A program made the position numbers and the translations under genes. Shown piece by piece: positions 1,590 through 45,082 of a stretch of 52,458 nt of DNA; the stretch's first letter is position 1, and each line of letters starts with the position of its first letter. Source of the DNA: a virus (Duplodnaviria > Caudoviricetes); the IMG/VR virus record IMGVR_UViG_3300027754_000128, positions 1 to 52,458 of that record. One strand, given 5' to 3'. The notes under the pieces were generated by a model. That model made no database searches. It worked only from the letters and a program-made list of their open reading frames with translations, and had not been told where the DNA came from.

Positions 1590-2575
1590 CAGCCGACCCA
1601 CTGGCAGAAACGCGACCAAAGGGATGGCTGAAGGGCGACCGGCTCGATGACGGGCAGGTTGGGGAGGTTTGGTGAAGGCAATTCGCCCGGCACTAAAACC
1701 TCAAGAGGGCCATGAGGCGTGGGGTAACGCTTCTTCCATTGTCCACGGTGGGCACTCCATTGAACGGCTTTGAGGGAGACGCCCAAATGTTCGGCTGCTT
1801 GACGATAGGTCATCCAGGAACCGGCGATATTGATGATAGGCGAGATGACCGGCCCGACGCTGGCGAAGGGTGGGGTGGACGGGAGCAAATGAGCTGGGAT
1901 TAATAAATCGATGCCTGTGCTGCGGCCACCAAACGCGCGCCGCTTCTGCCAGCCACCTTGCGTGGCACGACGATGGATGGTCGATACGGAGCAGTCAAAC
2001 ATCTGGACGGCACGCTCAATCGTCACCCAGACCTTGTCAGGGTCGTCGGTGTATTTCTCCAATAACTTGTCGGGAATTGCGTAGATCGGGATTCCGCGCC
2101 CCCAAGCGTATGTCTTTCTCGGGAAGGAAGAATGATGGAAGTTTGCAAAGGCGGCTTTGCGACCAGTGACTTTCGCGTAAGTAGGCCCGGTCATCCACGT
2201 CGAACCTGCGATGGGCTCCGAGGTGTTGAGTTTTGCCGCGTAGCGTTCGACCTTGGCACGCATTTTAAGCACAGCCTTTCGTCTTGCGCGGCGACCTTCT
2301 GCACTTACGCGGCGTTTCGATTTCTGTTCGAGTTCGACGGCCGGCTGTTCCGCCACCTTGGTGGCCGTCAGGGCCGCATGATCGGCGATCATGTCCGACA
2401 TCCACGTTGACGGCGGCGACGACCTCGGCCGACCCTGCGGCGCTGTATATCCATTTCCTTGCGACATGAAATTGACCTCCGGCATGGTGAGTTGTGTTCC
2501 GTCTCGGGTACGCTCTCTGACGCGCTTGATGCGAAAGTAGTCGGCGACGTGGGTGCGGCGATGGCTGCGGGTCAT
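1586..2575 (-). CDS. DNA-binding protein with tandem Xis/MerR-like HTH repeats
   Basis: WVTIERAVQMFDCSVSTIHRRA and WMTYRQAAEHLGVSLKAVQWSA repeats; start uncertain. Confidence 0.6.
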   Translation of the reverse strand: MTRSHRRTHVADYFRIKRVRERTRDGTQLTMPEVNFMSQGNGYTAPQGRPRSSPPSTWMSDMIADHAALTATKVAEQPAVELEQKSKRRVSAEGRRARRKAVLKMRAKVERYAAKLNTSEPIAGSTWMTGPTYAKVTGRKAAFANFHHSSFPRKTYAWGRGIPIYAIPDKLLEKYTDDPDKVWVTIERAVQMFDCSVSTIHRRATQGGWQKRRAFGGRSTGIDLLIPAHLLPSTPPFASVGPVISPIINIAGSWMTYRQAAEHLGVSLKAVQWSAHRGQWKKRYPTPHGPLEVLVPGELPSPNLPNLPVIEPVALQPSLWSRFCQWVGW

Positions 2576-2967
2576 GTCGGCTCCCTCAACTGGATGCCGC
2601 GCATGGCGCACACGGCATGGATGAAATCTATGAGGCTGGAGAACCCCTTCTTCCTCAGTCTCGTTGTGCTGGGGCGAAGCTGGATCGGGTGGTCGAGGAA
2701 GATCACCATGTCCGAGTCGCCGCCATGCTCGATCATCCAGGCGGTGACGAGTGCCGTCTTGGCCTCCTCAACCGTGAGCCTGCGGCCATCGTCGGTGGCT
2801 AGTCCGCCCTCGACTACCTCTTCCAGCAAAGCGTGAAGCAGGCGATTCTGCCGGCTGTTCCTGCGCGGTTCGCCGATCTCGATGACCAGCCCCTTGGTCG
2901 CGCGCCGCACGAGATCAACGGCCCGCGCCCGGTCCTCCGGGGTCTGGAGGTAGACCTGGAGGCTCAT
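2572..2967 (-). CDS. ninB: NinB/Orf-family recombination protein
   Basis: RNSRQNRLLHALL...STTRLRKKGFSSLIDFIHA motif; near ERF. Confidence 0.75.
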   Translation of the reverse strand: MSLQVYLQTPEDRARAVDLVRRATKGLVIEIGEPRRNSRQNRLLHALLEEVVEGGLATDDGRRLTVEEAKTALVTAWMIEHGGDSDMVIFLDHPIQLRPSTTRLRKKGFSSLIDFIHAVCAMRGIQLREPT

Positions 2968-3608
2968 TAGCGAATCGCCGTTCTGACCGTCTCGAAGATG
3001 CGGATGCCGGGGATGGCGCGCAGACCGCCGGCGACGGCCGCTTTGACTGCGGCCTCGTTGACCATGCAGTAGTTCCGCGGCACCAGCGACGGGTCGAGGA
3101 CTTCGTGCGTCCACTTCGTGCTGGCGCTGGCGAGCGCACCGCCGCTTGAGACGACGCGCGCGGCCTCGCGGACGACGACCGGGGCCGCCATGGGTGTCGG
3201 CTCATCGAATAGCGCCGCCGCCTCGCGTTCGGCCTTCTCGCGGGCAGCGGTTGCCGCCCGTTCCGCCGCCAGCTTCGCGGACTGGAAGCGGTTGATCGCG
3301 CCGACCACCTTGTCGATTGAGTCTTTGACCGGCTGGGAGAGGCCAGAGAAGAAGCCATCCACGGTGCGGCCGTCCGCGAGTATCTGCTGCTTCTCCTTCG
3401 TGCGGGCCGCCTCGATCGCCTTGGCAACTTCCTTCAGCGCGCGAGCCGTCTCTGCGTAGTCGCCGGCCTCGTCGTCGCTTTCAATCGCGCGGATCTCGGC
3501 CGGCACGAGCTGGGCTGCGTTCGTGGCGCCAGTCGAGAGCGCGGCGTGATCCATCGCCAGACGATCGGCGAGGGGCGGGGCATTGCCGCCGATGCCATGG
3601 CGGCTCAT
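2967..3608 (-). CDS. Coiled-coil recombination-module protein (Gp157/Gam-like C-terminus)
   Basis: GIGGNAPP start; C-terminal VKAAVAGGLRAIPGIRIFE; adjacent to ERF. Confidence 0.55.
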   Translation of the reverse strand: MSRHGIGGNAPPLADRLAMDHAALSTGATNAAQLVPAEIRAIESDDEAGDYAETARALKEVAKAIEAARTKEKQQILADGRTVDGFFSGLSQPVKDSIDKVVGAINRFQSAKLAAERAATAAREKAEREAAALFDEPTPMAAPVVVREAARVVSSGGALASASTKWTHEVLDPSLVPRNYCMVNEAAVKAAVAGGLRAIPGIRIFETVRTAIR

Positions 3609-29582: not shown

Positions 29583-31978
29583 TGGGCGTTGTCATTCCCG
29601 ATGCTGCCGACTACGGCACCCCTGTCCCGCGCGCAGCGACGACCGTCCAGTCCTATGGTGTCGGCCAGCCTGTCCAGCAGGATGTCGCCGCATGGACCTA
29701 CGCCGCGCAGTCCGCCAAGGCCGCCGCCGATAGCGACGCCAAGGCGATGGAAGGCGTGGGCGTCGAGATTGCCAAGTGGTCCGACCAGCTCCAGACCACG
29801 CAGGCGCAGGACAGCCTCAACCAGTTGCGCGCACGCCGGCAGGAACTGACGACCGGCGACAACGGCTTTATGAAGGTGCAGGGCGGCAACGTCGTCAATC
29901 CGGCGGGCGGGCAGGGTACTTCGATCTACGAGACGTTCCCGACCCAGTTCCAGGGCCACGCCGACGACATTGGCTTGAAGCTCTCTGGCAAGGCCGCGAT
30001 GCTCTACAAGCAGGCGATGGCGGCCGAGATCACCGGCTTCAAGAGCGACGTTGCCCGGCACGGCCTTGCGGAGGGCGAGAAGTACCGCGGCGCCGTGTAC
30101 AAGGACTTGCAGACCCAGCTCGACAACAAGATCGCCTCCTCGAGCGACCCGGCCGAGGTCGACAAGGGGATCGCCGACAAGATCGCGTCAGCTACGCAGT
30201 ACGCAATCTCGATCGGCATGCCGGGCGCTGCGGCGGCAAAGGCTGCCGGTTCCGACGCTGCCATGCTGGTGATCCAGAAGGCGGTCAATACCGGCGACAG
30301 CGGCGCGGCGTCGGCTGCCCTCACGAAGTACGGCACCTACCTCGACGCCAAGGACCGCATCAGGGTCGACGGCCTGGTGAAGACGCTTGCAAATCAGGAC
30401 TCTGCGGTCTCCGAGGCCGGCGCCATTCGCGCCAGTGTACTGGGCGGCGGCACAGGCGGTGATCTGGACAACAATATCGGCAACATCACGACCAGCCAGT
30501 TCCAGTATTCTGGCGGCAAGGGCGCTCCAAAGGGAGCCTTTGAGACATTCCAGACGCCGGAACATGGCGTCGCTGCCGCCTATCATACGGTTCAAGCAAA
30601 GGCGAAGCAGAACGGCGGCACGATTTCGTTCATCGAACTGATCGGTGGCAACGGCAAGGTGAAGGGCTGGGCGCCGGCCGCTAACGGTAGTTCTGATCCA
30701 CTCCTCAAGGGCAACGACCCCAACTCCTATGCAGCGCGTCTTGCTGCGGCTGTCGGGCTGAAGCCAGGCGATGCCGTCCCCGTTGGGGATGATGCGAAGA
30801 TGCAAGCCATTCTTCGCATGATGAACGTACACGAGAAGGGTAAACAAACAGTCAAGGACGATGCCTTCGGCCGCGGCATTCAGTTGGCTAAGGGTGACAC
30901 GTCTGTTGTCGCCGCGCCCGCTGCCAAGCGTTCGTCAGACCCGCTCTTCGATGACGGGCCGGCTGTAGACCCGATGAGAGACCCGCTCGGCGGCAAAGAC
31001 AATGTAGTGGCGGGCCAGGAGAACGGGGCTCTCTACAAAGACCCCGATGCCCTGCTGTACCAACTCAACCAGCAGTTTGCCGCCATGACGCGCGCGAACC
31101 AGGAGCGTTTCGCCACCAACATCGGAAAGCGCACCCTAGTCCAGACGGAACTGGAACTCTGGCACACGGCGCAGAAGAAGCAGATCGAACAGATGCGCCT
31201 CGCGCAAAAGGTGAACCTGAACCAGGTGATGACGACCGGCGGTCCTGACGGCAAGGGGCCGACCCACGAGAAGCAGATCCCGACCGAGCTGTGGGCGCAG
31301 CTCTCGTTCCGCGAGCGCGAGAGCGTGACCAATATCATCAAGCACAATGCCAAAGGCACCGAGGCCGTGACCGACCAGCAGCACTGGTATGAGATCCAGC
31401 GCGGCCTGACGAGCGCCGACCCCGTGGAGCGCCAGAAGTGGGCCGACTACGACCTGTGGCAGTCGAAGGACAAGCTCGACAACAAGGATCTGCAGGAACT
31501 GGCGAAGATGCAGGGCGTCGTCCGCAGGGGCGATCCCGACAAGCAGACGACGCATGTCCGCAACATCAATCAACTGGTCGATGATACGTTGCTAAAGCTG
31601 AGGATCGACAGCACGCCCAAGGCCGGGTCGAACGATGCCACGAAGGCATACGAGTTCCGGCGCTTCGTGCAGGATCAAATCACCGCGCTTGAAGCGACAC
31701 AGCCCGGCAAGAAGGCAACCACCGAGCAGCAGCAGAATATCATCGACCGCGCGGCGCTCGACATCGTCATGAAGAAAGGCAGGCTCTGGGACGACACGAA
31801 GCCGCGCTACGCCCTTACCATCAAGGACATCCCCGCCGAGGACAAGACCAAGATCATCGACGCCCTGACGCGCAAGAACGCAGCAGAAGCCGCCGCCACA
31901 AAGACGCAACCCAAGGCAATCTCGGAGAGTGACATCATCGACGCATTCGCACGCAAGAACGCCCAGGCCCCGAAATGA
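29582..31978 (+). CDS. Internal virion/ejection protein (gp15-like) with lysozyme-like insert
   Basis: 798 aa helical; NNIGNI...F.TPEHG...WAP...NDPNSYA segment. Confidence 0.75.
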   Translation: MGVVIPDAADYGTPVPRAATTVQSYGVGQPVQQDVAAWTYAAQSAKAAADSDAKAMEGVGVEIAKWSDQLQTTQAQDSLNQLRARRQELTTGDNGFMKVQGGNVVNPAGGQGTSIYETFPTQFQGHADDIGLKLSGKAAMLYKQAMAAEITGFKSDVARHGLAEGEKYRGAVYKDLQTQLDNKIASSSDPAEVDKGIADKIASATQYAISIGMPGAAAAKAAGSDAAMLVIQKAVNTGDSGAASAALTKYGTYLDAKDRIRVDGLVKTLANQDSAVSEAGAIRASVLGGGTGGDLDNNIGNITTSQFQYSGGKGAPKGAFETFQTPEHGVAAAYHTVQAKAKQNGGTISFIELIGGNGKVKGWAPAANGSSDPLLKGNDPNSYAARLAAAVGLKPGDAVPVGDDAKMQAILRMMNVHEKGKQTVKDDAFGRGIQLAKGDTSVVAAPAAKRSSDPLFDDGPAVDPMRDPLGGKDNVVAGQENGALYKDPDALLYQLNQQFAAMTRANQERFATNIGKRTLVQTELELWHTAQKKQIEQMRLAQKVNLNQVMTTGGPDGKGPTHEKQIPTELWAQLSFRERESVTNIIKHNAKGTEAVTDQQHWYEIQRGLTSADPVERQKWADYDLWQSKDKLDNKDLQELAKMQGVVRRGDPDKQTTHVRNINQLVDDTLLKLRIDSTPKAGSNDATKAYEFRRFVQDQITALEATQPGKKATTEQQQNIIDRAALDIVMKKGRLWDDTKPRYALTIKDIPAEDKTKIIDALTRKNAAEAAATKTQPKAISESDIIDAFARKNAQAPK

Positions 31979-34900
31979 GCGGCCCCGACGAGCTCCAGCC
32001 CGCCGCTCCCGTTGACGACGGTCTGGCGCAACTGACGGCCGACCGCAATGCAGCCGATGTTCCGCCGCCGCCCACGCCGCCTGCCAGTGCGCCTGGCCCC
32101 GCCGTCACGAACGAGTACGATGCTCTTCTGGCAGAGGCGCCCGCGAAGCCGGTCAACGAATACGACGCCGTCGTGGAGGATCTGTCCCGCGAGCGCAAAC
32201 AGACTGTGCGCGGGAACCTCATTGGCGCGCAGGCGACCACGCCAGAAGCCGCCGCGAAGTCTCTCGACCTGTCGCGCAAGACCGGCCTGCCGGCTGACAT
32301 GGTCGAGCGAAACTTGCCCAAAGTCGAGGCCGATCACAGGCTGAACGAATACGACGCCATCCTCAACGCTTCGCCCAAGACGCAGACATGGATCGCGGGC
32401 GACCCGACGAACGCCAAGGTGGCGGGCGATGAGGTCAAGAGGTTGGCCGAGATCGAAGCCATCCTGAAGCCAAGGAACATGTACGACCGCAACAGGCCGA
32501 GCAAGGCCTCGCGCTCGATCGACAGCGAGTCGGCGGATTGGGAGGCGACGGCGTTCGGTCGTGCGGGCGGTATCGTCTATGATAACAAGGCGCCCGCCGC
32601 CGCTCCGCTCTACCAGTCGCAGTGGATGTCTGGCGTCGAGAATATGGCGCAGGGCTTCAACAAGATGTCGAACCTCAATATCGCCCGCGATATTCGGACG
32701 TTCGACGCGATCGACCAGGGTAAGCCTGTCAATACGGCTGATGATCCCTATGGCTACAAGGACATGTCGAGTGACCAGCGCGCCCAGACGCGCACGCTCG
32801 CCGAGGTCCAGATCGTCAAGAACGTCGCGGCTCTCAAGCGGTCGACCGCCTTCGTCGCCGATCTGCCGCGCAACCAGAACGTCCAGCCGTTCTTCGATGC
32901 CCTCGATGATGTGCAGGCCAAGGATATGCTTTCCGTTCTGACGGATGCTCTCGGCAAGATGTCGGCGGGGATGAATGGCGCCCCGCAGGCTGGCACTGCT
33001 GGCCCTTCGCCATTGGCCGCGGCCGGCAAGATATTCGCGTCCGATTCGCTGGGTATCATGCAGCAGCTTGCGGTGGAAACGACGCCCAACATGCTCCCGA
33101 TCATCGCGGGTTCGATCGTGGGTGGTCCTGTCGGCACTTTCCTGGCATCGCAAGCTGTCGATTTCCCGTCGCGAACCGACGACTGGATCAAGCAGGAACT
33201 GGCGAAGGAAAACAAGACCGGCGTCGAGTTCATTAATGTCAACGATCCCGAGGCCGTGCAGGCATATCTGCGCGCCAACCCCGCCTTCGCCGAGAAGGCG
33301 CAGAGGATGGGATATGCTGGATCATTCGGCCCGTCTGCTGTCGACGCCGTCTCGTTCGGAGCGACCCGCCCGTTCAAACGCGGCGCAGGTTTCGCCGCGA
33401 ATACCGGACGAGTGGCCGGCAACATCGCGATGGATACCGGCCTTGAAATGGTTGGTGAGGCCGCCGGGCAGATCATCAGCGGACAGGACGAGATCAAACT
33501 CAGTGAGATTGTCGCCGAGGGATTGGGCGCGTTCCCGCATGGCGCCTCCAATACCGTTGTCGCAACGGCGCGGGAAGCATCCCGCGCCAGTACCGAGGCC
33601 AAGACCGAGGCCGCCGTCAAGGAGATCAAGGCGACCATCACGGCCGCCAACGAGTTCCTGACCGACCTGCGGACGCACGTCGCGGAGACGGAGACGCTGA
33701 CGCTCGATGACCTTGTCGACAAGGTGCAGGGCAGCACCCTCCACAAGCTGTCGCCCGAGAAGATGAAGGACTTCCTCGAGTCGCTGTCTCCTGACGAGCA
33801 GAAGGCCGACGTGTTCATCTCGTCGGATGCGGTCAGCACGCTGTTCCAGGACATGTCGGTCCTGGAGCGCGATACGCTGGCCGAGAACCTCGGCATCACC
33901 GAGCAGCTCAATTCGCTGGGCCTCAACGCCAACACCGACATCGTGATCCCGCTGCCGGTCTACCTGACGGCGATCGGCGATGCTCACAAGGCGTGGCGCG
34001 ACGACGTTCGCATGGACTTCATGGGGTTCTCCAACCGGGAGGCCATTGCGGAGGGCAAGGCCAAGGCCGAGGAGACCGCCGCTGCGGTGGCGCGCTTCGA
34101 GGAGCAGGTCGCTGCCGGCGTGCAGGATAGCCCGCAGGAGATCGTCTACCAGCAGGTGTTGGGGATGCTGAAGGCGAACGGCTTCACCAATGAGCAGGCT
34201 TCCCAGCAGGCTGCCTATGCTGCCTCGCGCTACCATGCTCGTGCGGTTCGCAGCCCGCAGATGTTCACCGACGCCCTGGATGCGTTCACGCAGTACCCGT
34301 TCACCATCCGCTCGCACCTGGGCGACGGCATCCGGGTGATCGGCCCTGACCAGCTCGACATCATGCTCGACAGCATCCGGTCGGGCAAAGATCCGGTGAT
34401 CACGCCGGCCTTCGCCCACATCGAGGCGCGCAAAGCTGCGGCCGAGGCAGAGTTGTCGACGGTCCTCGGCGAGGCACCTGTCGTCAAGACGCCCAAGCAG
34501 ATCGCGGACGAACGCAAGGCTGCCGCGCTGGGCGTGTTCCAGGCTCGCCGTCAGGAACTGGCAGACTGGCTCGAGAGCCGCGGCCTCGACCTCAAGACGG
34601 CGACCAACGCGCAGATCCGCGCCGAGATCGAGAAGGTCCAGAAGGGGACCAGCTACAACCAAGACGATGTTCTGGTTGTTAAGCAGCCCCTTTCCGACAG
34701 TTTGATCATGGTCGCCCAGCGTGGCGATCGGGCGACTGGTAATCGGCTTCTCCTGTCTACTGAAGAGAAGGCGGCCATTGCCGCGTCTGTCGGGCCGAGC
34801 GGTCTATCGGTTGCAGAAATCACCGCGACCGTTCGCAAGCACAAACTGGCCCATCCGCCGGCACAGAACTGGGAGCCTCTGGTCTTCATCAAGGCCCGCC

Positions 34901-37900
34901 TCGACAAAAAGGGCAAGCCTGAGTTCATGTACAAGTTGGTTCCCTATAGCTTCATCAGGGACAACGACGGCAAAGAGATTCAGCCATCGGAGAAGAAATA
35001 CGCGGGCAGGGTCAAGGCGCTCGGCGACGCTATTGCGGAAGAGGTTCGTGGCATCTATCGCCGCGCCGCTGCTGGCGACAAGAACGCCCAGAACATCCTG
35101 GCCCAAGCCGGCTGGTACAAGGCAATGCGTGCCAGGCTGCGCCAAGAGTTCGGTGGCCTGGGTGACCTGTTTGCCGACGCTCTCGGAGCCACGTCGCCCA
35201 ATACGCCCGTGCGCGGGAACTGGGAGAATGCGGTCGACAGCTTGCGCCGCGCGAGCCGTGGTGACTTTGATGCACTGATGCCGCAGTGGGTAGCCTGGTC
35301 TGAGAATATCGACCGGCTCGAGACCGACCTCCGCGCGTTCGTAAACGAGCAGCGCGCCAAGAAGCAGGCCTCGAAGAGCGAGCCCTGGATGGACAGCGAT
35401 AAGCCGCAGACCTTGAAGTCCATCAAGGAGATGCAGGAATACATCGATAAGAGGAAGGCTCTGTCTGAGGCGCGTGAACTGCCGCCCGACCTCATGCCGA
35501 CCAAGGAGAGTGGCGCACAGTACGGGTTCAACGGTCGCAACGTGGTGCGCGCCATGCTCGACCTGTGGCGCACAATCAAGGACGCTGATCCCGATATCGG
35601 ACGTAGCGGCACTGCGCCCAAGGCGCTCAATTTCTCTGGCAACCTCATTGGGTTCCGGGGCAAGGCGACGATCGATGTCTGGGCCGCGCGCCTGCTGCAG
35701 CGTCTGGCCGGCAAGCGCCGCATACCCAGCATGGCAGAGATAGCCGTCTCCGGTGAGATGCTTGCTGATGCTTCGACAACGGGCCAGTTCGGCTTCGGGC
35801 AGGACACTTTCGCGCATGCCGTTGCCGTCATCAGATCCGACAGCGAGATGAGCCAGGACTCTGCTCTCGCAAAAATCAATGACGACGACCTACAGGCTGT
35901 TGTCTGGTTCATCGAGAAAGAGGTCTGGACGGTCAACAACTGGACAAGCGTCTCAGGGGAGGGAGGCTCGTTCGAGTTGGAAGCCAACCTCACCGGCACG
36001 GCCAAGCAGGCCCGTGTTCGCGAGCTGCGTAAGATCATCGACAGCTCCCCGTCCGCGGCCGATGTGAAGGCGGTGGCCGGCGCCGACGCAGTCTCGGCAA
36101 AGGTCGAGGCGTGGGATGCTGAACACAAAGCGGAACTCGATGAACTGGGAGAGATCAACCAGCGCCTCGCGTCGGATACCCTGTCGAAGAAGGAAGCATC
36201 CGGTCTAAAGAAGCGCGCGGCAGAACTGCAGAAGGCCACTAAGCTGCCGAAAGAAATCGCGCAGGAGATGCGCGACGTTGCCAACGGCCAGCGACGGATT
36301 GACGAGCGCGCTGCCCAGAAGGTGTTGGCGCGGGCGGAACTGGCAACCCTTGAGCGTCCCGTCGATCGCTACGTCGGCGGTCTGTCCACGCAGATGTCGA
36401 TCGACAACCAGGGGGTGGACTACGTCCCGACCGACGCCGACATGGCCCGCTTGGGTGATGCCATCCGGCTGGCGATCTACGAGAACGATGCCACTGCAAA
36501 CGTGCTGGCCTCCAAGGCCCTGCCGACCGAGGGCCGCTACGGCAGCGTGGAGCGTTCGCTCGACCTCGAGATTGTGGCTCGCGAGGGCTACGATCCCAGC
36601 ACGGTCTGGGCCGAGATGCTGCGCCAGGCGCAGGAAGCGCGGCAGGACTCGACCTTCCTCTCCCGCGTTCTGCGGGATGGCGAGGAGATCGATTACACCA
36701 AGCACCGGCCCGGCATTGAAATATACTTCCGCGATGCCGCCGCCGCCCAGCAGCTTGAGAAGATGTTGGCCGACCTGGCGAAGGAGGGGGTGTCCTTCCT
36801 GACGGTCTCTGTCGACGGGCGCCGGATGCCCGGTTATGTGGCCGGTGCCATGCCGGCAGCGGTCGGCGTGCGCCTGCAGTACGTCCCAGAGTTCGAGCAA
36901 AGGTACGGAATAGACGACCTTTCGGGCTTGGATGACGCGGCCATTGCGGATAAGATGAAGGCCAAAGGCGACGAACTGGACGACGTTGCGATGCGCGTCG
37001 CCACCAATGTTTCAGGCGTCTCGTTTGCTGGCGTTTTCTGGCATGAGACACAGGTGGCATTCAGCCATCAGTATCAGGAGAAGATCGATGGTCTCGCAAC
37101 TGGAAGAACTGAAGCGGAAGCTGGCGCGACTGGACCCGGAGGGTGGGTCGGACAATCCGTTCGTGCAGGGCTTGCGGATGCAGATCGCCAGTCGCGAGAA
37201 GCCGCGAGCGGAGAACCCGGTGGGCAACGAGAGCCGGTGGTCGGCGGGGATGAGGGCAGCACCGGACGCGCCGGAAAAGGCGTAACTCTCAACCAGTCCG
37301 TCTACCACGGCGGCCCGCGCATCTTCGACCGCTTCAGCCTCGACTATATTGGAACGGGAGAGGGCGCGCAGGCTTTCGGTTGGGGATTATACTTCGCGTC
37401 GAAGAAGGCTCTCGCGGCGCACTATCGCGACAAGCTATCTCCCGCTGGCCCCGGTGCCGTCGAGTATCAGGGCAAGATGGTCCTCACCTCGGACGGCAAG
37501 CCTCTTCGCGCGCGGCCCGAGTGGCTGAAGGATTGGGGCAACGATCTGCAGGCGCTGATCGAGGTTGCAGTCGACGGCAACATGACATTGCCGGAGGCCA
37601 TTGCCGAGGTCCGCGCCGCCGCTAAGCAGGTCGGGTTTATCCGTCGCTTTCTGGGCTACGGCTTTAACGAGCGGTTCCTGCAGGCGATCCTCGACAAGGG
37701 CTACACCATTGGCGACTCGCAGAAGGGCCGCCTCTACACCGTCGAGATCCCCGACGATGGCGCGTACCTGCTGTGGGACAAGCCGCTCAGTGAGCAGAGC
37801 AAGGTTCTTCGCGACGCACTGCCCGCACTGATCCAGAAATACGGCGGTGACCTCTCCAAGATCATTGGCGCCAACGGCCAACTGCGCGACAGCGTGACGG

Positions 37901-40900
37901 GCGAGTCCGTCTACCGCGCACTGTCGGCGGCTATGGCGAACAAGCCAATCGATGAAAGCGGCATGGCGGGCTGGACGCGGGTCCAGAATACCGTCAACGA
38001 CCGAATGGCGAACGACAAAGCCGCCTCCCTCGCCCTGCTTGCCGCAGGCATCCCCGGCATCAAGTACCTCGACGGCTCGTCGCGGCGGAAGGGCGATGGC
38101 GATCACAACTATGTGCTGTTCGATGACAGCCTCGCCAAGATCACGCAGTACGAGCAAGACAAACGCGGCTCGATCACGTTCGGCGATACGTCCGCCACGG
38201 TCGACCTCTACCAGGCCCGCAACCCGTCCACGCTGCTGCATGAGATGTGGCACAAGTGGTTCGGCGAGTTCGAGTTCGATGTCGCCCACCTCGGCGCCAG
38301 CGAGCAGATGCGGGCGGACTTCAAGGTGCTGCTCGACTTCGTCGGCTCGACGGACGGTCGCATTGGACTGAGCGCCTACGAGGGCGGGCGGGTGAATACA
38401 CTGCGCGCCAAGATCGACGCCACGGGCGAGAAGAGCCTCGACGGCGCGGAAGCCGAGGAGTGGGCCGCGCTGAAGGTCCGCATCGAGCAGAACGAGAAGC
38501 TGGCCCGTGCCGGCGAGGTCTACCTCATGGAGGGCAAGGCCCCGTCCGACGCCCTCCGCAAGGTGTTCCGCGCCTTCAAGTCGTGGCTGCTGGGCGTCTA
38601 CCGCAATATGCGGAATCTGCAGGCGCCGATCTCTCCCGAGGTCCGCGCGGTGTTGGACCGCATGCTGGCGACCGACGAGGAGATAGCCTCGCTGAACGAT
38701 CGGCAGGGGCTGAACCCCGTGCTGGAGTACGCCAAGGAACTGATGAGCAAAACTGAGTTCGCCGCCTACACGAAGAAGACCGCGGACGTACTCGAGGACC
38801 AGCAGGACGCACTGTTCGCCAAGGTATCGGGCGACCTCCGCAAGCAGGCCAAGGGCGAATACGTCAAGGAACGCGCCAAGATCCGGGGCGAGGTCACCGA
38901 CGAGATGATGGCGGAACCCGGCCAGCAGGCGCTGCACTTCCTAAAGAAGGGCGTCATGTCTGCCGGCGAGACGCCTGAGATACTGAAGGGCCGCAAGTTG
39001 TCCCGCGCCGGCCTGATAGAACTGATCGGGCAGGAGGGGCTGAACACGCTCCCGGCGGGCATCTATGCGGAAGAGGGGCTTTCCCCCGACGAGATGGCGC
39101 CGCTGTTCGGGCTGGGCAACGGCATGGAGTTGGCCGAGCGCCTGATGCAGATCGCCGCCGAGGACAAGGCGTGGAAGGACAAGGGCGGGCGCGGCACCGC
39201 CGTCCAGTCGCGGATCGCAGAGGAGACCCAGAGGCGGCTCACAGAGGCCCTGGGAGACCCGCTGAACGACGGCAGCATCGAAGCCGAGGCTTGGGCCATC
39301 GTCCACTCGGACAAGCGCCTGGACCTCATGGCAGTCGATCTGCGGATGCTTGCGCGCAAGGCCGGGCAGACCGGCGCGGTGAGCATCGTGGACATCCAGA
39401 ACTGGGCGGCCGAGCAGATCGGCGGCATGTCGTCGTATCAGGCGACACAGGTCGCGCGCTACCAGCGCGCCGAGCGGATGGCGGGCCAGCAGGTCCAGAA
39501 GGCCCTCGTGAAGGGCGACTGGGTGGCTGCGTTCAAGGCCAAGCAGGACCAGGTCTACAACTTCGCGCTCTACAAGGAGGCGATGAAGGCGTCCGACGAT
39601 GCTGGCAAGATCACGGCCTACCTCGACAAGCTGGCCGGCGCCCGCAACATCAAGGCCCTCGACCAGAACTATCTCGACTCCATCCACGGTCTCCTCGAGG
39701 AGTACGACTTCAAGAAGCGCAGCGGCACTCTGCTGACCGATCGCACCCGCTTCAACGCCTTGGTCGCGGAGCAGGCGTTGATGGGCGTCGAGGTGCAAGA
39801 GCCGCCTTACCTGAAGGGGGCCGAGCGCAAGCACTTCTCGCAGATGACGATGGATGAATTGCGCGCCGTCTACGAGGCAATCAAGCAGCTCGATCGCCTT
39901 GGCCGAGACATCAAGAAGGTGATGCTCGACGGCAAGAAGGTCGCGCGCGATGCTGTGCTGACCGAGATGGAGGCGACTGCTGCTGCCGGCGTGCAGCGCG
40001 GCTCCAGTCTCAGCAATCTCGGCAAGACCGAGATCCAGAAGAGCGTCGGCAAGGCCAAGCATATCTTGCGTCTGGGCAACGCCAGCCTGCTCAAGATCGA
40101 GCGGCTGCTGGAGTTCGCGGACGGCGATGTGACCGGCAACGGTATCTTTTCGCGCGCGATCTACCGGCCCATCGCCAACGCTGCCCACGCCACCAACGAT
40201 GAGCGCGTCGATAACAGCAAGCAGTACAAGGTGATCTACGAGAAGGTGCCGCTCGAGCAGCGCAATGCCTGGTCGACAATCCACACGCTTCCCGAGCTTG
40301 GCGGCAGGAAGCTCTCAAAAGAGAACATCATCTCGATAGCTCTCAACATGGGCAACGAATCGAACCTCGAGAAGCTGATCAAGGGCTATGGCTGGAGCTA
40401 CGAGGGTGTTCGCGCGGTCGTGAACAAGTACCTCACGAAGGAAGAGTGGAGGTTCGTTCAGGACAAGTGGGACTTGATGCAGTCTCGCTGGCCTGCCTAC
40501 GCCGCGATGATCCGCGACATCGAGGGCGTCGAACCTCCCAAGATCGAGGCCGTCCCTCTCGAGACACCGTTCGGAACGCTGCCCGGCGGCTACATGCCGG
40601 TCCAGTATGACCGCAACGAGAGCCTGGAAGCACAAAAGATCGGCGAGGCGCAGGACAGTGCGTTGCTGCAGGGCATGGCAATATCGCCCCGCGCCAATGT
40701 ACCGTCCACGAAATCTGGATCGTCCATCGAGCGCACCGGCTTCACTGGTCCCATCCTGCTGGAACTGAGTGTCATCGGTAAGCATCTGGACGAGGTCGCC
40801 CACGACACCCACCACCGTCGTGCCGTGGCGGACGTTTTCAAGATCATCTCAAACGACCGCTTCCGCAAGGCCATCCAGTCGCGGCTCGGCGTCGAGTACG

Positions 40901-42045
40901 AGGCAACCTTCATGCCGTGGTTGATCCGCGTGGCTAACGAGGCGCGCGTAGCCAACGTCGAGCTGGCCGGGCCTGACTACATGATGCGGGCGCTGCGGGT
41001 GAACGTGACGCAGATGGCGATGGGCCTGCGCGTCTCGACCATGGTGCAGCAGGTCGCGGGCTTTGCCGCATCGGCTGCGAATCTGGGCGCCAAGGATCTG
41101 GGCTCCGGCTTCTGGGAATACATCCAGAACCCCAAGGCCGCCGCTCGCGAGGTCTACGCGAAGTCGGGCGAGATGCGCCACCGCGCCAACAACCTCGAGC
41201 GCGACATCAAGGCCAACCTCGACAAGTTCCGCGGGAGTACCAAGAGGATCTCCCGCGCGCGGGACGACATCGGACGGTTTGCCTTCCGCGGCATCGCGCT
41301 GATGGACCTCGCGGTGTCGATCCCGACGTGGCTGGGCGCCTACAAGCAGGGCCTGACCAAGGGCATGCTCGAGGCTGATGCCATTGCCTACGCCGACAAG
41401 ATGGTGCGCGACACGCAGGGTGCCGGCGGCGTCAAGGATCTGTCGGCCTTCCAGGGTGGCGGCGGCGAGGGCTGGAAGCTCCTCGGCATGTTCTATTCGT
41501 TCCTCAACGTCTACTACAACGCGCAGGCCCGCATGCTCGAGGCCGCGCGCAAGCCCGGCAAGACCTTCTCCGAGCATGTCGACCTCTGGTGGATGGCGAC
41601 CATGTGGATGGCCGTGTCGCCGCTGTTGGCCGCCGCCGTGTCGGGGCAGGGACCGGACGACGACGAAGACCCGCTCTACTGGGCCATGCGGACGGTGGGC
41701 TTCGGCGCCTTTGCCGGCATCCCGGTCGTGCGCGATGCAATGAGTACGATGTCCCGCGAGATGGGCGGCAAGCCAACGGCCGGCTTCCAGATGTCTCCCG
41801 TGACCGGGCCGATCTCCGGGTCCACGCGCCTGGTGAAGGATTTGATCAACCTCGCGAGCGGCGAGGATGTCAGCAAGAACTTCACCAAGAACACCTTCAA
41901 CGTGATTGGCGGCTTCACCGGCCTGCCAACAGGGCAGATCGGCGTGACCTCGCAGTTCCTGTGGGACACGCTCTACTCCGGGGCAGAAAACCCCGAGAAC
42001 ATTCTGGAATGGCTCCGCGGCCTCACGTTCGGGCCCAAGAAGTAG
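31975..42045 (+). CDS. Giant polyvalent ejection protein (3356 aa; gp16/DarB-like position)
   Basis: Glycosylase-like (WY, ATSP, TIDVW, LQAVVW), SAM-lyase-like (GRY..VERS, QDS), ART (YHG, GTGEG.QAFGWGLYF, NYVLFD) and HEMWH peptidase motifs. Confidence 0.88.
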   Translation: MSGPDELQPAAPVDDGLAQLTADRNAADVPPPPTPPASAPGPAVTNEYDALLAEAPAKPVNEYDAVVEDLSRERKQTVRGNLIGAQATTPEAAAKSLDLSRKTGLPADMVERNLPKVEADHRLNEYDAILNASPKTQTWIAGDPTNAKVAGDEVKRLAEIEAILKPRNMYDRNRPSKASRSIDSESADWEATAFGRAGGIVYDNKAPAAAPLYQSQWMSGVENMAQGFNKMSNLNIARDIRTFDAIDQGKPVNTADDPYGYKDMSSDQRAQTRTLAEVQIVKNVAALKRSTAFVADLPRNQNVQPFFDALDDVQAKDMLSVLTDALGKMSAGMNGAPQAGTAGPSPLAAAGKIFASDSLGIMQQLAVETTPNMLPIIAGSIVGGPVGTFLASQAVDFPSRTDDWIKQELAKENKTGVEFINVNDPEAVQAYLRANPAFAEKAQRMGYAGSFGPSAVDAVSFGATRPFKRGAGFAANTGRVAGNIAMDTGLEMVGEAAGQIISGQDEIKLSEIVAEGLGAFPHGASNTVVATAREASRASTEAKTEAAVKEIKATITAANEFLTDLRTHVAETETLTLDDLVDKVQGSTLHKLSPEKMKDFLESLSPDEQKADVFISSDAVSTLFQDMSVLERDTLAENLGITEQLNSLGLNANTDIVIPLPVYLTAIGDAHKAWRDDVRMDFMGFSNREAIAEGKAKAEETAAAVARFEEQVAAGVQDSPQEIVYQQVLGMLKANGFTNEQASQQAAYAASRYHARAVRSPQMFTDALDAFTQYPFTIRSHLGDGIRVIGPDQLDIMLDSIRSGKDPVITPAFAHIEARKAAAEAELSTVLGEAPVVKTPKQIADERKAAALGVFQARRQELADWLESRGLDLKTATNAQIRAEIEKVQKGTSYNQDDVLVVKQPLSDSLIMVAQRGDRATGNRLLLSTEEKAAIAASVGPSGLSVAEITATVRKHKLAHPPAQNWEPLVFIKARLDKKGKPEFMYKLVPYSFIRDNDGKEIQPSEKKYAGRVKALGDAIAEEVRGIYRRAAAGDKNAQNILAQAGWYKAMRARLRQEFGGLGDLFADALGATSPNTPVRGNWENAVDSLRRASRGDFDALMPQWVAWSENIDRLETDLRAFVNEQRAKKQASKSEPWMDSDKPQTLKSIKEMQEYIDKRKALSEARELPPDLMPTKESGAQYGFNGRNVVRAMLDLWRTIKDADPDIGRSGTAPKALNFSGNLIGFRGKATIDVWAARLLQRLAGKRRIPSMAEIAVSGEMLADASTTGQFGFGQDTFAHAVAVIRSDSEMSQDSALAKINDDDLQAVVWFIEKEVWTVNNWTSVSGEGGSFELEANLTGTAKQARVRELRKIIDSSPSAADVKAVAGADAVSAKVEAWDAEHKAELDELGEINQRLASDTLSKKEASGLKKRAAELQKATKLPKEIAQEMRDVANGQRRIDERAAQKVLARAELATLERPVDRYVGGLSTQMSIDNQGVDYVPTDADMARLGDAIRLAIYENDATANVLASKALPTEGRYGSVERSLDLEIVAREGYDPSTVWAEMLRQAQEARQDSTFLSRVLRDGEEIDYTKHRPGIEIYFRDAAAAQQLEKMLADLAKEGVSFLTVSVDGRRMPGYVAGAMPAAVGVRLQYVPEFEQRYGIDDLSGLDDAAIADKMKAKGDELDDVAMRVATNVSGVSFAGVFWHETQVAFSHQYQEKIDGLATGRTEAEAGATGPGGWVGQSVRAGLADADRQSREAASGEPGGQREPVVGGDEGSTGRAGKGVTLNQSVYHGGPRIFDRFSLDYIGTGEGAQAFGWGLYFASKKALAAHYRDKLSPAGPGAVEYQGKMVLTSDGKPLRARPEWLKDWGNDLQALIEVAVDGNMTLPEAIAEVRAAAKQVGFIRRFLGYGFNERFLQAILDKGYTIGDSQKGRLYTVEIPDDGAYLLWDKPLSEQSKVLRDALPALIQKYGGDLSKIIGANGQLRDSVTGESVYRALSAAMANKPIDESGMAGWTRVQNTVNDRMANDKAASLALLAAGIPGIKYLDGSSRRKGDGDHNYVLFDDSLAKITQYEQDKRGSITFGDTSATVDLYQARNPSTLLHEMWHKWFGEFEFDVAHLGASEQMRADFKVLLDFVGSTDGRIGLSAYEGGRVNTLRAKIDATGEKSLDGAEAEEWAALKVRIEQNEKLARAGEVYLMEGKAPSDALRKVFRAFKSWLLGVYRNMRNLQAPISPEVRAVLDRMLATDEEIASLNDRQGLNPVLEYAKELMSKTEFAAYTKKTADVLEDQQDALFAKVSGDLRKQAKGEYVKERAKIRGEVTDEMMAEPGQQALHFLKKGVMSAGETPEILKGRKLSRAGLIELIGQEGLNTLPAGIYAEEGLSPDEMAPLFGLGNGMELAERLMQIAAEDKAWKDKGGRGTAVQSRIAEETQRRLTEALGDPLNDGSIEAEAWAIVHSDKRLDLMAVDLRMLARKAGQTGAVSIVDIQNWAAEQIGGMSSYQATQVARYQRAERMAGQQVQKALVKGDWVAAFKAKQDQVYNFALYKEAMKASDDAGKITAYLDKLAGARNIKALDQNYLDSIHGLLEEYDFKKRSGTLLTDRTRFNALVAEQALMGVEVQEPPYLKGAERKHFSQMTMDELRAVYEAIKQLDRLGRDIKKVMLDGKKVARDAVLTEMEATAAAGVQRGSSLSNLGKTEIQKSVGKAKHILRLGNASLLKIERLLEFADGDVTGNGIFSRAIYRPIANAAHATNDERVDNSKQYKVIYEKVPLEQRNAWSTIHTLPELGGRKLSKENIISIALNMGNESNLEKLIKGYGWSYEGVRAVVNKYLTKEEWRFVQDKWDLMQSRWPAYAAMIRDIEGVEPPKIEAVPLETPFGTLPGGYMPVQYDRNESLEAQKIGEAQDSALLQGMAISPRANVPSTKSGSSIERTGFTGPILLELSVIGKHLDEVAHDTHHRRAVADVFKIISNDRFRKAIQSRLGVEYEATFMPWLIRVANEARVANVELAGPDYMMRALRVNVTQMAMGLRVSTMVQQVAGFAASAANLGAKDLGSGFWEYIQNPKAAAREVYAKSGEMRHRANNLERDIKANLDKFRGSTKRISRARDDIGRFAFRGIALMDLAVSIPTWLGAYKQGLTKGMLEADAIAYADKMVRDTQGAGGVKDLSAFQGGGGEGWKLLGMFYSFLNVYYNAQARMLEAARKPGKTFSEHVDLWWMATMWMAVSPLLAAAVSGQGPDDDEDPLYWAMRTVGFGAFAGIPVVRDAMSTMSREMGGKPTAGFQMSPVTGPISGSTRLVKDLINLASGEDVSKNFTKNTFNVIGGFTGLPTGQIGVTSQFLWDTLYSGAENPENILEWLRGLTFGPKK
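37088..37285 (+). CDS. Nested +1-frame ORF (65 aa) inside the giant gene
   Basis: AGGAG at 37076-37080, 7 nt before ATG; helical MVSQLEELKRKLARLDPEGGSDNPFVQGLRMQIA; the host frame is a low-complexity linker here. Confidence 0.55.
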   Translation: MVSQLEELKRKLARLDPEGGSDNPFVQGLRMQIASREKPRAENPVGNESRWSAGMRAAPDAPEKA

Positions 42046-42084
42046 ACGCCACGTCGCCGTCGATCGGTGATCGGCGGCTATAAT
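42041..42084 (+). promoter_or_regulatory. Putative late promoter 3 (upstream of tail fibre)
   Basis: AGTAGACGCCAC-N26-TATAAT. Confidence 0.78.
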
Positions 42085-42105
42085 CGCTTTCTGTAGGAGT
42101 ACGCA

Positions 42106-43344
42106 ATGACATTAGACCGGCGCCTGGGCGTCTCTGGCGGCACCGCCTTGAAGGCACCGTGCCTAGTGGCGACGACGGCCAACATCACGCTGTCCGGTCT
42201 GCAGACGATCGACGGCGTGACCGTCGTTGCCGATGATCGTGTGCTGGTGAAGAACCAGACGACCGGCAGCGAGAACGGCATTTATCTGGCGAACACCTCG
42301 ACGTGGACGCGGGCGGTCGACTTCAACGGCACGCGCGACGCGGTACAAGGAACGCTGGTCCTGGTGATCTCAGGAACAGTCGGCGGAAATGCCCTGTTCC
42401 AACTGACGACGGCGACGCCGGTCATCGGCACCTCTAGCCTAACCTTCACGCCGTCGAGCGCGGGCGCGCTGTCGCTCGCTTCGACCTTCATGCTGACGGT
42501 GCTGGATGACACTACGGCGGCAGCGGCGCGGACCACGCTCGATGTGCCGAGCAATGCCGAGGCCATTCTGGATACAATCGTTGATGCCGCGGGCGATCTG
42601 ATCGTCGGCACGGCGGCCGATACTGTAGCCCGCCTTGCCAAGGGGACTGCCCTGCAGGTCTTGCGCGTCAATTCCGGCGCAACCGCGCTCGAATGGGCGG
42701 CGGCGCCGAACGCCACCGCGCCAACCTATCAGGTTCTCACCAGCGGGACGGCGGCTACATACACAACGCCAGCCGGCGTTCGCTATATCAGGGTCGTGTT
42801 CGTAGGCGGCGGCGGCGGTGGTGGCGGCGCTGGCGGCTCTACCGCACCGACTGGCGCAACGGGCGGCACGACATCGTTCAACTCGATCACGGCCATCGGC
42901 GGCTCTGGCGGTGTCGGATCAATCGGGACTACGGGTGCTGGTGGCATCGGCGGCACGGGTGGCGCTGGAACGGCTACTTGGCGCCTGCCGGGCGGCCCCG
43001 GCTCAACTGGTTCGGGAACGTTCGGCTACGTTCAGGGTGGCAATGGCGGCGTAGGCCCGTTTGGTGGGGCGTCTGGCACGGGCGTCAACGGGGGCGTCGG
43101 CGTTGCTGGACAGGCGAACACGGGAGCCGGTGGCTCGGGCACCGGCACCGCAGCCGCGACCAATGCTTCCGGTGGCGGCGGCGCTGGCGAGTACGTTGAA
43201 TTGATCATCGGCAGTCCTGCGGCGACCTACACCTACACGGTGGGGGCTGGTGGCGCGGGCGGCATTGGGACAGGGGCGTCGCCGCTGACCGGAGGCGCGG
43301 GTGGCAGCGGCATCATCGTTGTCGAAGAACACTACAACTTCTAG
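42106..43344 (+). CDS. Tail fibre-like protein with C-terminal glycine-rich domain
   Basis: ATTANITLSGLQTIDGV...RVLVKNQT...NGIY N-domain; GGGGGGG.../GGAGGSGIIVVEE domain. Confidence 0.8.
   Translation: MTLDRRLGVSGGTALKAPCLVATTANITLSGLQTIDGVTVVADDRVLVKNQTTGSENGIYLANTSTWTRAVDFNGTRDAVQGTLVLVISGTVGGNALFQLTTATPVIGTSSLTFTPSSAGALSLASTFMLTVLDDTTAAAARTTLDVPSNAEAILDTIVDAAGDLIVGTAADTVARLAKGTALQVLRVNSGATALEWAAAPNATAPTYQVLTSGTAATYTTPAGVRYIRVVFVGGGGGGGGAGGSTAPTGATGGTTSFNSITAIGGSGGVGSIGTTGAGGIGGTGGAGTATWRLPGGPGSTGSGTFGYVQGGNGGVGPFGGASGTGVNGGVGVAGQANTGAGGSGTGTAAATNASGGGGAGEYVELIIGSPAATYTYTVGAGGAGGIGTGASPLTGGAGGSGIIVVEEHYNF
42739..43329 (+). repeat. Gly-rich domain repeat, copy 1 (copy 2 at 44389-44979)
   Basis: Colinear at offset 1650, mostly synonymous differences. 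Confidence 0.92.
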
Positions 43345-43353
43345 GAACCGAAC

Positions 43354-43665
43354 ATGATTAAAGTGATTGTTCGTAACAATGTGGTCGAAAACATCGGTGT
43401 CCCGAGCCCGAACGACGGGCCGCCTCCTGATGGGACTACCGTGCATGATTTCGACGGCCCTTGCTCCGTTAGGTGGTTGTGGAACGACGGAAGTCCTGTT
43501 GATCCGAATCCCCCGCCGTCGTCGCCGCCTTTCCCCGATCAATCCAACACGGACAATCATCAGCGTGCGATCAAGGCCGCCATGCTGGTCATGGCACAGT
43601 GGAACGGAAAGACGCCTGCACAAGCAAAGGCAGCGTTCAAGGCGGCCTACGACAGCCTGCCCTGA
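43354..43665 (+). CDS. Tail fibre chaperone-like protein
   Basis: VENI...WLWNDG...PPP pattern after a Gly-rich fibre. Confidence 0.55.
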   Translation: MIKVIVRNNVVENIGVPSPNDGPPPDGTTVHDFDGPCSVRWLWNDGSPVDPNPPPSSPPFPDQSNTDNHQRAIKAAMLVMAQWNGKTPAQAKAAFKAAYDSLP

Positions 43666-43704
43666 AGTAGCGACCAGTAGGCCGTTCGACCGGGTGCGTC
43701 ATCC

Positions 43705-43748
43705 AGTAGACGCCACCTAACAGGAAACCGACCGAGCCAAGGTATCCT
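43705..43748 (+). promoter_or_regulatory. Putative late promoter 4
   Basis: AGTAGACGCCAC-N26-TATCCT. Confidence 0.72.
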
Positions 43749-43783
43749 CTTCTCAATCCCACGAAACCCTGGGGAGAGGACAC

Positions 43784-44296
43784 ATGGCAACCAAGAACGG
43801 CCTCGGCTTTCGCAGTATCACAGCGACCTTCACGCGACCCTCTGACACCAACGTCTATGCTTCCGGCGACCTCGTCGCCAACTCGACCACGGCGGCCAGC
43901 GTCGTGCCGATGGAGTGGGTCGTGCCGGGCAAGCCGGTGTTCCAGGTGCCGGCCATCCGGCTGCAGAAGAGCGGCGCGACGGTCACCAACGCCCAGTTCC
44001 GCGTCCACCTGTTCCTGACCACCATCCCGACCATCGCGACCACGGGCGACAACGGCGCGTTTGCCTCTGTGGTCACCGGCTTCGGGTCATGGTTCGGCGC
44101 ATATGACGGCACCATGCTTGGCCTCGCCGATGGCGGCGTCTGCGACTGCGTACCGATCTCTGGCATTATCCGGCCCGATCTGATCGCCACGCCCGGCGAC
44201 AAGATCTACGGCCTTGTCGAAGCTCGAGCGGCCTACACGCCGGCTAGTGCCGAGATCTTCATCGCGACGCTCATCCAAGAGTTTGAGAGGCCATAA
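43784..44296 (+). CDS. Probable structural protein
   Basis: FTRPSDTNVYASGD.V...YGLVEARAAYTPAS; GAGGA RBS. Confidence 0.6.
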   Translation: MATKNGLGFRSITATFTRPSDTNVYASGDLVANSTTAASVVPMEWVVPGKPVFQVPAIRLQKSGATVTNAQFRVHLFLTTIPTIATTGDNGAFASVVTGFGSWFGAYDGTMLGLADGGVCDCVPISGIIRPDLIATPGDKIYGLVEARAAYTPASAEIFIATLIQEFERP

Positions 44297-44985
44297 TGGC
44301 ACGCTTTCTCGGCGTCACCTCGGGCAGTATCGCGCGCGCTCTGGGCTTCACGCCCGCTTCGTCCAGGGTGCCTACCTCGCAAACCTTCACTAGTGGCACG
44401 GCGGCGACCTATACAACCCCGGCCGGCGTAAGTTATCTCAAGGTTCGCTTTGTCGGCGGTGGTGGTGGCGCTGGCGGCGCTGGCGGCTCTACCGCACCGA
44501 CTGGCGCAACGGGCAGCACGACATCGTTCAATTCCATCACGGCCATCGGCGGTTCCGGTGGCGTGGGTTCAGTGGGGGCGACTGGCGCGGGCGGCATCGG
44601 CGGCACGGGCGGCGCAGGCACGGCTACTTGGCGCCTGCCGGGCGGCCCCGGCTCAACTGGTTCGGGAACGGTCAGCTACGTTCAGGGCGGCAACGGCGGC
44701 GTTGGCCCATTTGGTGGGGCGTCGGGAACCGGCATCAACGGGGGCGTGGGCGTCGCTGGACAGGCGAACACTGGCGCGGGTGGTTCGGGAACCGGCACAG
44801 CAGCCGCGACCAACGCTTCCGGTGGCGGTGGTGCGGGAGAGTATGTCGAATTGATTATCGGCAGTCCTGCGGCGACCTACACCTACACGGTGGGGGCTGG
44901 TGGCGCGGGCGGCATCGGTACTGGCGCAGGCGCGCTTACGGGCGGCGCGGGCGGCAGCGGCTTCATCATCGTTGAAGAGTTTTAG
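44296..44985 (+). CDS. Stand-alone glycine-rich fibre-domain protein
   Basis: Near-identical to the C-terminal domain of 42106-43344. Confidence 0.8.
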   Translation: MARFLGVTSGSIARALGFTPASSRVPTSQTFTSGTAATYTTPAGVSYLKVRFVGGGGGAGGAGGSTAPTGATGSTTSFNSITAIGGSGGVGSVGATGAGGIGGTGGAGTATWRLPGGPGSTGSGTVSYVQGGNGGVGPFGGASGTGINGGVGVAGQANTGAGGSGTGTAAATNASGGGGAGEYVELIIGSPAATYTYTVGAGGAGGIGTGAGALTGGAGGSGFIIVEEF

Positions 44986-45082
44986 GTGCTTGGGGTAATG
45001 GCACCCGCGAATACCAGGCTCGGCCAACCATGACGCCCGACGCCACATTGACCGCGCCTACCATCGCACAGTGGGGGGCGCC

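Follow-up and report, generated by a model that had tools for sequence, protein, structure and literature searches.

Does a short reading frame that lies hidden inside a very long phage gene encode a protein of its own, and, if so, what might that protein do? The question is raised by a 52,458-base virus record (IMG/VR IMGVR_UViG_3300027754_000128; Duplodnaviria; Caudoviricetes), estimated to be 98% complete and analyzed here over its whole length, which we call the window. A giant gene of 3356 codons on the plus strand (31975-42045) contains, in the +1 frame relative to it and on the same strand, an open reading frame (ORF) of 65 codons plus a TAA stop at 37088-37285. A Shine-Dalgarno (SD) sequence, AGGAG, at 37076-37080 on the plus strand, read as Q-E-K in the main frame, is followed by a 7-nt spacer and the ATG at 37088-37090, while the TAA occupies 37283-37285. 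Both the SD and the ATG are embedded in the last codons of a conserved main-frame domain (residues 1450-1705; 36322-37089, plus strand), and the stop falls 3 nt ahead of the main-frame codons L1772-N1773-Q1774. Across the nested ORF the giant gene encodes a stop-free linker (residues 1706-1772; 37090-37290, plus strand), and an ART-PolyVal-like cassette (residues ~1773-2059; 37291-38151, plus strand) begins 6 nt past the nested stop. A preliminary description, made from the letters of the window only, had proposed that the ORF is a gene for an inhibitor or chaperone that neutralizes an adjacent toxic domain, either a SAM-lyase-like (S-adenosylmethionine lyase-like) domain upstream or the ART downstream. 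Its coordinates, the AGGAG-N7-ATG arrangement and the translated peptide were reproduced exactly; the G/A/E/R-rich character of the linker is seen in the main-frame translation, and the stop does fall just before the LNQ-ART boundary, the ART-PolyVal match starting at residue 1775. No internal promoter-like or terminator-like sites were found in 36300-37600.

Judged from the window sequence alone, the nested ORF is not beyond chance, because the DNA is rich in guanine and cytosine (GC 62-68%) and off-frame ORFs are common, with 93 ORFs of at least 50 aa overlapping 30000-45000. The composition of this stretch is nevertheless distinctive within the giant gene. GC at the three main-frame codon positions is 0.84/0.70/0.48 in 37099-37248 vs 0.64/0.44/0.82 gene-wide, and this flip becomes a normal coding pattern when the stretch is read in the +1 frame. 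In a 40-codon scan of the giant gene, 37099-37248 was the sole strong flip of this kind. Weak departures in GC by codon position were also seen at 31975-32154 (the Pro/Ala-rich N-terminus, first 60 codons) and at 34705-34854, and neither has an inverted substitution pattern. Scans of composition and substitution found no further nested genes in the giant gene, the ART cassette being checkable by composition only. The idea that a nested gene travels inside each cargo cassette thus gives way to a single such stretch in the whole giant gene.

Viral, genome and metagenome collections supplied relatives for comparison. The first seven loci to span the region (56-99% protein identity, GC 0.41-0.67) all have an open +1 ORF of 58-67 codons that starts at the same ATG, and the two AT-rich loci among them have a stop immediately 5′ of it. 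For an unbiased set, viral contigs were searched with a profile of the upstream main-frame domain only. The results showed that a hidden Markov model of the small protein matches the +1 frame in all 49 loci found by way of the domain (E 4.6e-36 to 5.7e-13), whose domains are 41-99% identical to that of the window, and that it has no match in the other two forward frames of these loci. The nested ATG stands at the identical position in 48 of the 49, the exception (L150) having it two codons later. Identity cut-offs of 90, 70 and 50% sort the 41 distinct small proteins of these loci (GC 0.41-0.68) into 33, 19 and 7 clusters, and the copy farthest from the window's is 28% identical to it.

The start region is conserved in its own right. 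The A and T of the nested ATG belong to a main-frame codon that was GAT in 19 of 19 first-round loci, although in the 15 loci with GC of at least 0.62 just 9-35% of Asp codons are GAT. Among the 41 distinct copies 29 have GAT there and 12 have AAT, and a genome bin (L101) has CAT, so that the main-frame residue varies and the ATG stays. An SD core lies 4-16 nt upstream of the ATG in 40 of the 41 copies vs a background of 0.11 at arbitrary positions, a stop codon stands directly 5′ of the ATG in the +1 frame in 15, and in 40 mRNA structure in the 50-nt stretch around the start is weaker than in the background of the locus (mean z +1.52). The ribosome-binding site, the ATG and the open frame, on whose conservation in homologues the preliminary description had staked its proposal, are therefore all retained.

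Selection was compared between frames by Nei-Gojobori ratios of nonsynonymous to synonymous differences (pN/pS) over 17 nested loci and 60 core codons, with the third frame serving as control. The +1 frame gave a ratio of 0.51, against 1.28 for the main frame and 1.24 for the control, and its value was below that of the main frame for 132 of 136 pairs; a codon analysis in both frames had been suggested in the preliminary description. In the upstream domain the main-frame pN/pS was 0.28, and main-frame pS fell from 0.68 there to 0.24 in the overlap. Differences by +1-frame codon position were 0.26/0.25/0.40. When the giant gene was compared with six relatives in sliding windows, only codons 1711-1750 (37105-37224) were less variable at third than at first positions, and they were so in all six comparisons. 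The main frame is stop-free across the overlap in all 41 distinct copies, and the third frame has at least one stop in all 41. Codons of the small protein were then redrawn from each locus's own usage; the chance that the main frame stays open ranged from 0.53 down to less than 0.002, and did not exceed 0.03 in any of the 25 loci whose GC is 0.56 or lower. Frame-specific selection together with a main frame that is never closed makes the overlap dual-coding, with selection acting on the protein in the +1 frame and on continuity only, not on sequence, in the main frame. Strict definitions of overlapping genes call for an embedded ORF, both frames open, purifying selection in the embedded frame, synonymous constraint in the host frame and start signals of its own, and each of these was found here. 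From these comparisons we consider it highly probable that the nested ORF is translated, with initiation at an SD and ATG of its own.

The protein encoded would be a small helical hairpin with a short tail. An AlphaFold2 model built from 57 sequences places helices at residues 4-19 and 24-37, with a predicted local distance difference test score (pLDDT) of ~90 for residues 1-40 and of 61-73 for the tail, in agreement with the earlier guess of a helical hairpin in the N-terminal half. The 65-aa product has no Cys, no hydrophobic N-terminus, and no signal peptide or lipobox. Residues invariant among close members include M1, S3, Q4, L5, L8, K9, G20, P24, V26, G28, L29, Q32, I33, A34, E37, K38, P39, N43 and P44, and distant members retain the hairpin and a tail resembling aromatic-x-[VA]-G-[MT]-x-x-A-P. 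Pfam and PHROGs hold no family matching the small protein, a Foldseek search of the hairpin against the PDB gave nothing at E of 0.001 or below, and the ESM Atlas gave leads at 0.83 only, under the useful level.

A profile search of 1.84 billion representatives returned 110 proteins at E of 1e-3 or below, 31 of them at 1e-10 or below. Nearly all are 31-227 aa long and most align from residue 1, which indicates that family members start at the same Met. The two long matches (993 and 1172 aa) are unrelated repeat proteins, and no giant protein with the small-protein sequence in frame is among the 110, which rules out a simple frame error. Ten clusters were looked up; eight are singletons, on contigs of 644-8834 bases, and gene callers reported these small proteins because the contigs are short. 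Several variants have conserved C-terminal extensions of their own, and one variant of 130 aa is again nested in an open giant frame. At least four different extension modules were seen (L099 3001-3315; P0012 and P0017; P0005, P0023, P0028 and P0044; P0009 and P0022; P0051, P0053, L101 and L122), and in P0053 one such module is N-terminal to the hairpin, which marks the family as modular. A second short ORF in yet another frame, with a 'DDLGL'-like tail, follows the small gene 3′ in three unrelated contexts (L104, L105 and L106) and resembles the C-terminal extensions of P0009, P0014 and P0022.

We then asked which part of the giant gene the small ORF accompanies. The preliminary description had named co-occurrence with either neighboring domain as a test, and the outcome was divided: the upstream domain is accompanied by the small ORF in 49 of 49 loci, and the ART is not tied to it. 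Among 80 loci, the small ORF is present in 7 of 7 with the upstream domain, and no match lies within 3 kb in any of 73 loci that have the ART only. In L002 the ART-like cassette is missing, the sequence is otherwise 96-99% identical, and the small ORF is retained; L003, L100 and most other relatives likewise have the small ORF without the cassette. The cassette at 37291-38151 is a clean presence/absence difference relative to L002, with its junction 6 nt past the nested stop, as if module swapping respected the end of the hidden gene. BLAST of the relatives against the giant protein showed a conserved block at ~880-1770 that ends with the nested ORF, then variable cassettes, and a second conserved block from 2060. 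In distant phages the host gene ends 101-444 codons past the domain with quite different tails, and the small ORF is still nested in it. No viral locus was found with the small gene separate beside the domain gene. In the AT-rich distant phages L154-L162 the domain-bearing gene ends in a short conserved basic C-terminal peptide, and an ORF starting MATQMP lies directly 3′ of the host gene, in a gene order unlike that of the window.

Nineteen further loci from metagenomes widen this picture. Six have the small ORF nested in long frames with the full domain, eleven (L104-L108, L111-L114, L118 and L122) have it intact with the domain absent or reduced to at most the last 47 profile positions, and two hold fragments. 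The domain-less copies keep the SD site and start at the same ATG, and the main frame is closed in three of the eleven (L111, L112 and L122). In L112 a junction with foreign sequence lies right at the SD; in L122 the small gene is on a 271-kb contig beside a transposase-like ORF; and in L108 diverged convergent paralogues, at 287-655 on the plus strand and 970-1269 on the minus strand, flank a 92-aa ORF with a helix-turn-helix-like motif. In the genome bin L101 a 150-aa ORF ends with the last stretch of the domain only, and the small ORF overruns the stop of that ORF. The two fragments (L120 2366-2455 and L121 1530-1619; profile positions 15-56) have a stop after the DNPFV motif and look decayed.

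The upstream domain, the 256 residues 1450-1705, has a mean column identity of 79% over 18 sequences, with many invariant charged residues. Its AlphaFold2 model (pLDDT 75.8, predicted template modeling score 0.77) is an alpha/beta fold of two ferredoxin-like halves. The domain has no PDB match by sequence profile (best E 0.49) and no Pfam match, and fold searches gave generic ferredoxin-like matches only. The phage SAM lyase 6zm9 was matched by Foldseek at E 7.5e-3 with a template modeling score of 0.41 on the target (VIA Z 7.8, root-mean-square deviation 4.2, 115 residues aligned), and it is not distinctive, being one among many ferredoxin-like folds at Z 6-8. In BFVD the domain occurs only in polyvalent proteins of uncultured phages. 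It is present in at least 99 giant proteins of the 1845-5873-aa range that was searched; these are unnamed or 'hypothetical', save one that its source labels a GNAT N-acetyltransferase, and their cargo is varied (ART, GNAT, Zeta-toxin, lysozyme-type domains and others).

Prediction of the complex between this domain and the small protein, the upstream side of a test put forward in the preliminary description, scored 0.81 (runs 0.81, 0.79 and 0.83) vs 0.16 for the best control, with a partner pLDDT of at least 65 and at least 49% of contacts shared between runs. In calibration, 58 of 80 solved complexes and 2 of 110 mismatched pairs came up to this mark, counts that are only approximate here since our own unpaired alignments were used. 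The predicted interface involves residues 1-5, 7-8, 11, 14-15, 23-29, 31-32, 35-36, 55 and 57 of the small protein and residues 63, 117, 119-125, 134, 217-228 and 233-240 of the domain, that is, 1512, 1566, 1568-1574, 1583, 1666-1677 and 1682-1689 of the giant protein. On the strength of this model, the small protein probably binds the upstream domain.

Joining the gene with the predicted binding, we lean, at somewhat better than even confidence, to the reading that the small protein is a dedicated partner of the upstream domain that acts in trans. Ribosomes would initiate independently at the SD and ATG within the last codons of the conserved domain, read about 60 codons in the +1 frame and stop just ahead of the giant protein's next module. 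The product, a small helical hairpin with a short conserved tail, would bind the ferredoxin-like double domain (1450-1705) in trans. Made alongside the giant protein in the virus-producing cell, it would most likely keep the domain inactive, soluble or assembly-competent until packaging, whether as an inhibitor, as a chaperone or as a part that completes it, and may itself be left out of the virion. The main frame over the overlap would serve as a spacer that ties the domain to the variable downstream cargo, with only its openness selected. The domain and the small gene form the constant part of this giant-protein family, and the downstream modules vary; because the domain is thus a conserved core rather than variable cargo, a constant partner fits it better than a polymorphic toxin-immunity pair would.

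Several points weigh against the dedicated-partner reading. The eleven domain-less loci suggest that the small protein can persist without the domain. The locus counts cover sequences related by descent and not independent events, and translation of the ORF is predicted from sequence. A phage GenBank collection, in which cultured relatives were sought, had no match for the DNA, the small protein, the domain or an AT-rich homologue. The support for binding is the confidence of a model built on our own unpaired alignments, and the predicted interface on the domain is not enriched in invariant columns (9 of 23 vs about one third overall). Finally, Pfam, PDB and fold searches assigned the upstream domain to no recognizable enzymatic or toxic family, and a need for inhibition is therefore not indicated. 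The same domain-less loci, including L122, L112 and L108, would be expected if the small protein were real and had a job unrelated to the domain, for example as a regulator or anti-defence factor from a wider family of small modular proteins, and were enclosed in the giant gene only because two neighboring genes had been joined by a frame that reads through it. The several different conserved C-terminal extensions of family members fit this, and so does the fact that GC at third positions and selection track the +1 frame, as expected for the frame that matters or for the older frame. We hold this unlikely, since the small ORF holds its place in all 49 domain loci, even where the domain is only 41% identical, the binding prediction scored well above its controls, and a small gene standing apart beside the domain gene was met in no viral locus. 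A more specific and rather more doubtful form of the partner idea would make the nested gene the built-in antidote of a conserved, host-directed enzymatic domain of the injected giant protein. With the antidote present only in the producing cell, the domain would be silent during assembly and become active after ejection into a new host, and the domain-less copies (L104-L108, L111-L114, L118 and L122) would be orphan antidotes, captured from the phage and turned into a defence that disarms phages as they enter.

The remaining explanations do without a separately started partner of the upstream domain. Phages elsewhere obtain two products from one stretch by frameshifting, as in lambda G/GT, and programmed frameshifting out of the main frame would here yield a shortened giant protein ending in the hairpin, which would fold back onto the domain in cis; the hairpin is indeed predicted to pack on a domain that ends where the hairpin begins. 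We regard this as very improbable, because the +1-frame stop directly 5′ of the ATG in 15 of 41 copies stands in the way, no slippery site is conserved (the codons before the ATG vary among ATC, ATA, ATT, CTC, TTA and CTA), and a conserved ATG and SD would be superfluous for a frameshift, as would the same ATG with its SD in the domain-less copies. Slightly less probable still is that there is no gene here, and that a chance ORF in GC-rich DNA or an element conserved at the nucleotide level is being seen. The abundance of off-frame ORFs in the window is in keeping with that; however, in loci of 41-47% GC the nested frame keeps its ATG and stays open, and the third frame there contains 4-7 stops, the selection is frame-specific, the AlphaFold2 fold is confident, and there is neither an Rfam family over the nested ORF nor a pair of flanking terminal repeats around it that would suggest a mobile insert. 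Least probable of all is a small protein that acts as immunity protein or inhibitor of the downstream ART. The nested stop 6 nt before the cassette in the window invites this idea, but the ART-only loci without the small protein and the relatives that keep the ORF without the cassette, both described above, speak against it, and as a general rule ART immunity is refuted by these locus comparisons. A return to the main frame by a -1 shift out of the nested one, giving a hairpin-tagged C-terminal isoform, was considered separately and rejected: the end of the ORF has no X XXY YYZ heptamer, and the tails of the small proteins differ in length and sequence.

Among known arrangements, the type case of an embedded out-of-frame pair of phage genes is lambda Rz/Rz1, whose products are thought to act as a physical pair. 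As there, another phage gene fully encloses the short one, which is in the +1 frame and has a ribosome-binding site of its own. The nested product described here differs from Rz1 in that the missing signal peptide, lipobox and Cys exclude the outer-membrane lipoprotein type, and the host gene differs from Rz in that it encodes a 3356-aa virion protein rather than a lysis gene, its frame in the overlap being unconstrained save for openness. Nested scaffold genes and the tail-chaperone G/GT frameshift are phage assembly genes that give two products, in the same frame or by way of a slippery site. The present locus resembles them in that one late structural stretch gives a large protein and a small helper, and departs from them in having an independent out-of-frame start and no conserved slippery site.

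In phage-borne polymorphic toxins such as the MuF toxins, a multidomain protein packaged in the head goes with a small cognate protein that neutralizes one domain of it (PMC12226406, PMC9503650). The small gene here likewise follows the domain that its product is predicted to bind. Unlike in polymorphic toxin-immunity pairs, the domain is internal and a conserved core instead of a variable toxin at the C-terminus, no known toxin or immunity family matches either partner, and the small gene overlaps the giant gene rather than following it. The host gene agrees with polyvalent proteins, as set out in the main text of Iyer et al. (2017; PMC5512222), in its LPD22 domain, its weak ART-PolyVal match and the varied cargo of its relatives. 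The words 'overlap' and 'frameshift' are absent from that main text, which does not describe a second-frame gene in polyvalent proteins, and full-text searches on polyvalent proteins and on embedded genes in virion proteins, outside subscription journals and supplements, together with term look-ups in these three papers, yielded no account of such a gene in a polyvalent or ejection protein.

Gene callers skip genes nested in another frame, and the family is accordingly missing from Pfam and PHROGs despite having more than 100 members in the collections searched. Few computational cases of dual coding in tailed phages are as clear as this locus, with one frame kept for protein and the other for openness, and it provides a first way into a core domain of giant polyvalent ejection proteins that is conserved but lacks annotation. 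A GAT-to-GAC change would abolish the nested start, turning the ATG into ACG, and leave the host-frame residue as it is. If the partner is an inhibitor, the pair would reveal how a phage can assemble safely with potentially harmful enzymes destined for injection, and the orphan copies would be candidates for a new kind of host defence.

The giant gene product is a polyvalent protein in the sense of PMC5512222, of the virion or ejection type. This class assignment is based on LPD22 together with the weak ART-PolyVal match, on the diverse cargo Pfam domains of its relatives and on its location in the structural module. Pfam LPD22 is matched at residues 86-165 (E 1.9e-16), and the ART-PolyVal match covers residues 1775-1819 at E 0.0022 and 19.2 bits, under the cut-off of 31.2 bits. 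The last 1200 residues (2159-3356) are covered by phrog_9880, a family whose function is not known. Inside the ART-like coding region, 37727-37791 gave a sub-threshold match to the Guanidine-III riboswitch (19.5 bits vs a gathering threshold of 36, E 0.2), most likely by chance. The structural module around the giant gene is podovirus-like and runs, in order, through terminase, connector, major head, an 896-aa tail protein, a 798-aa protein, the giant gene and a tail-fibre gene, and the 798-aa protein immediately before the giant gene has a lysozyme-like match.

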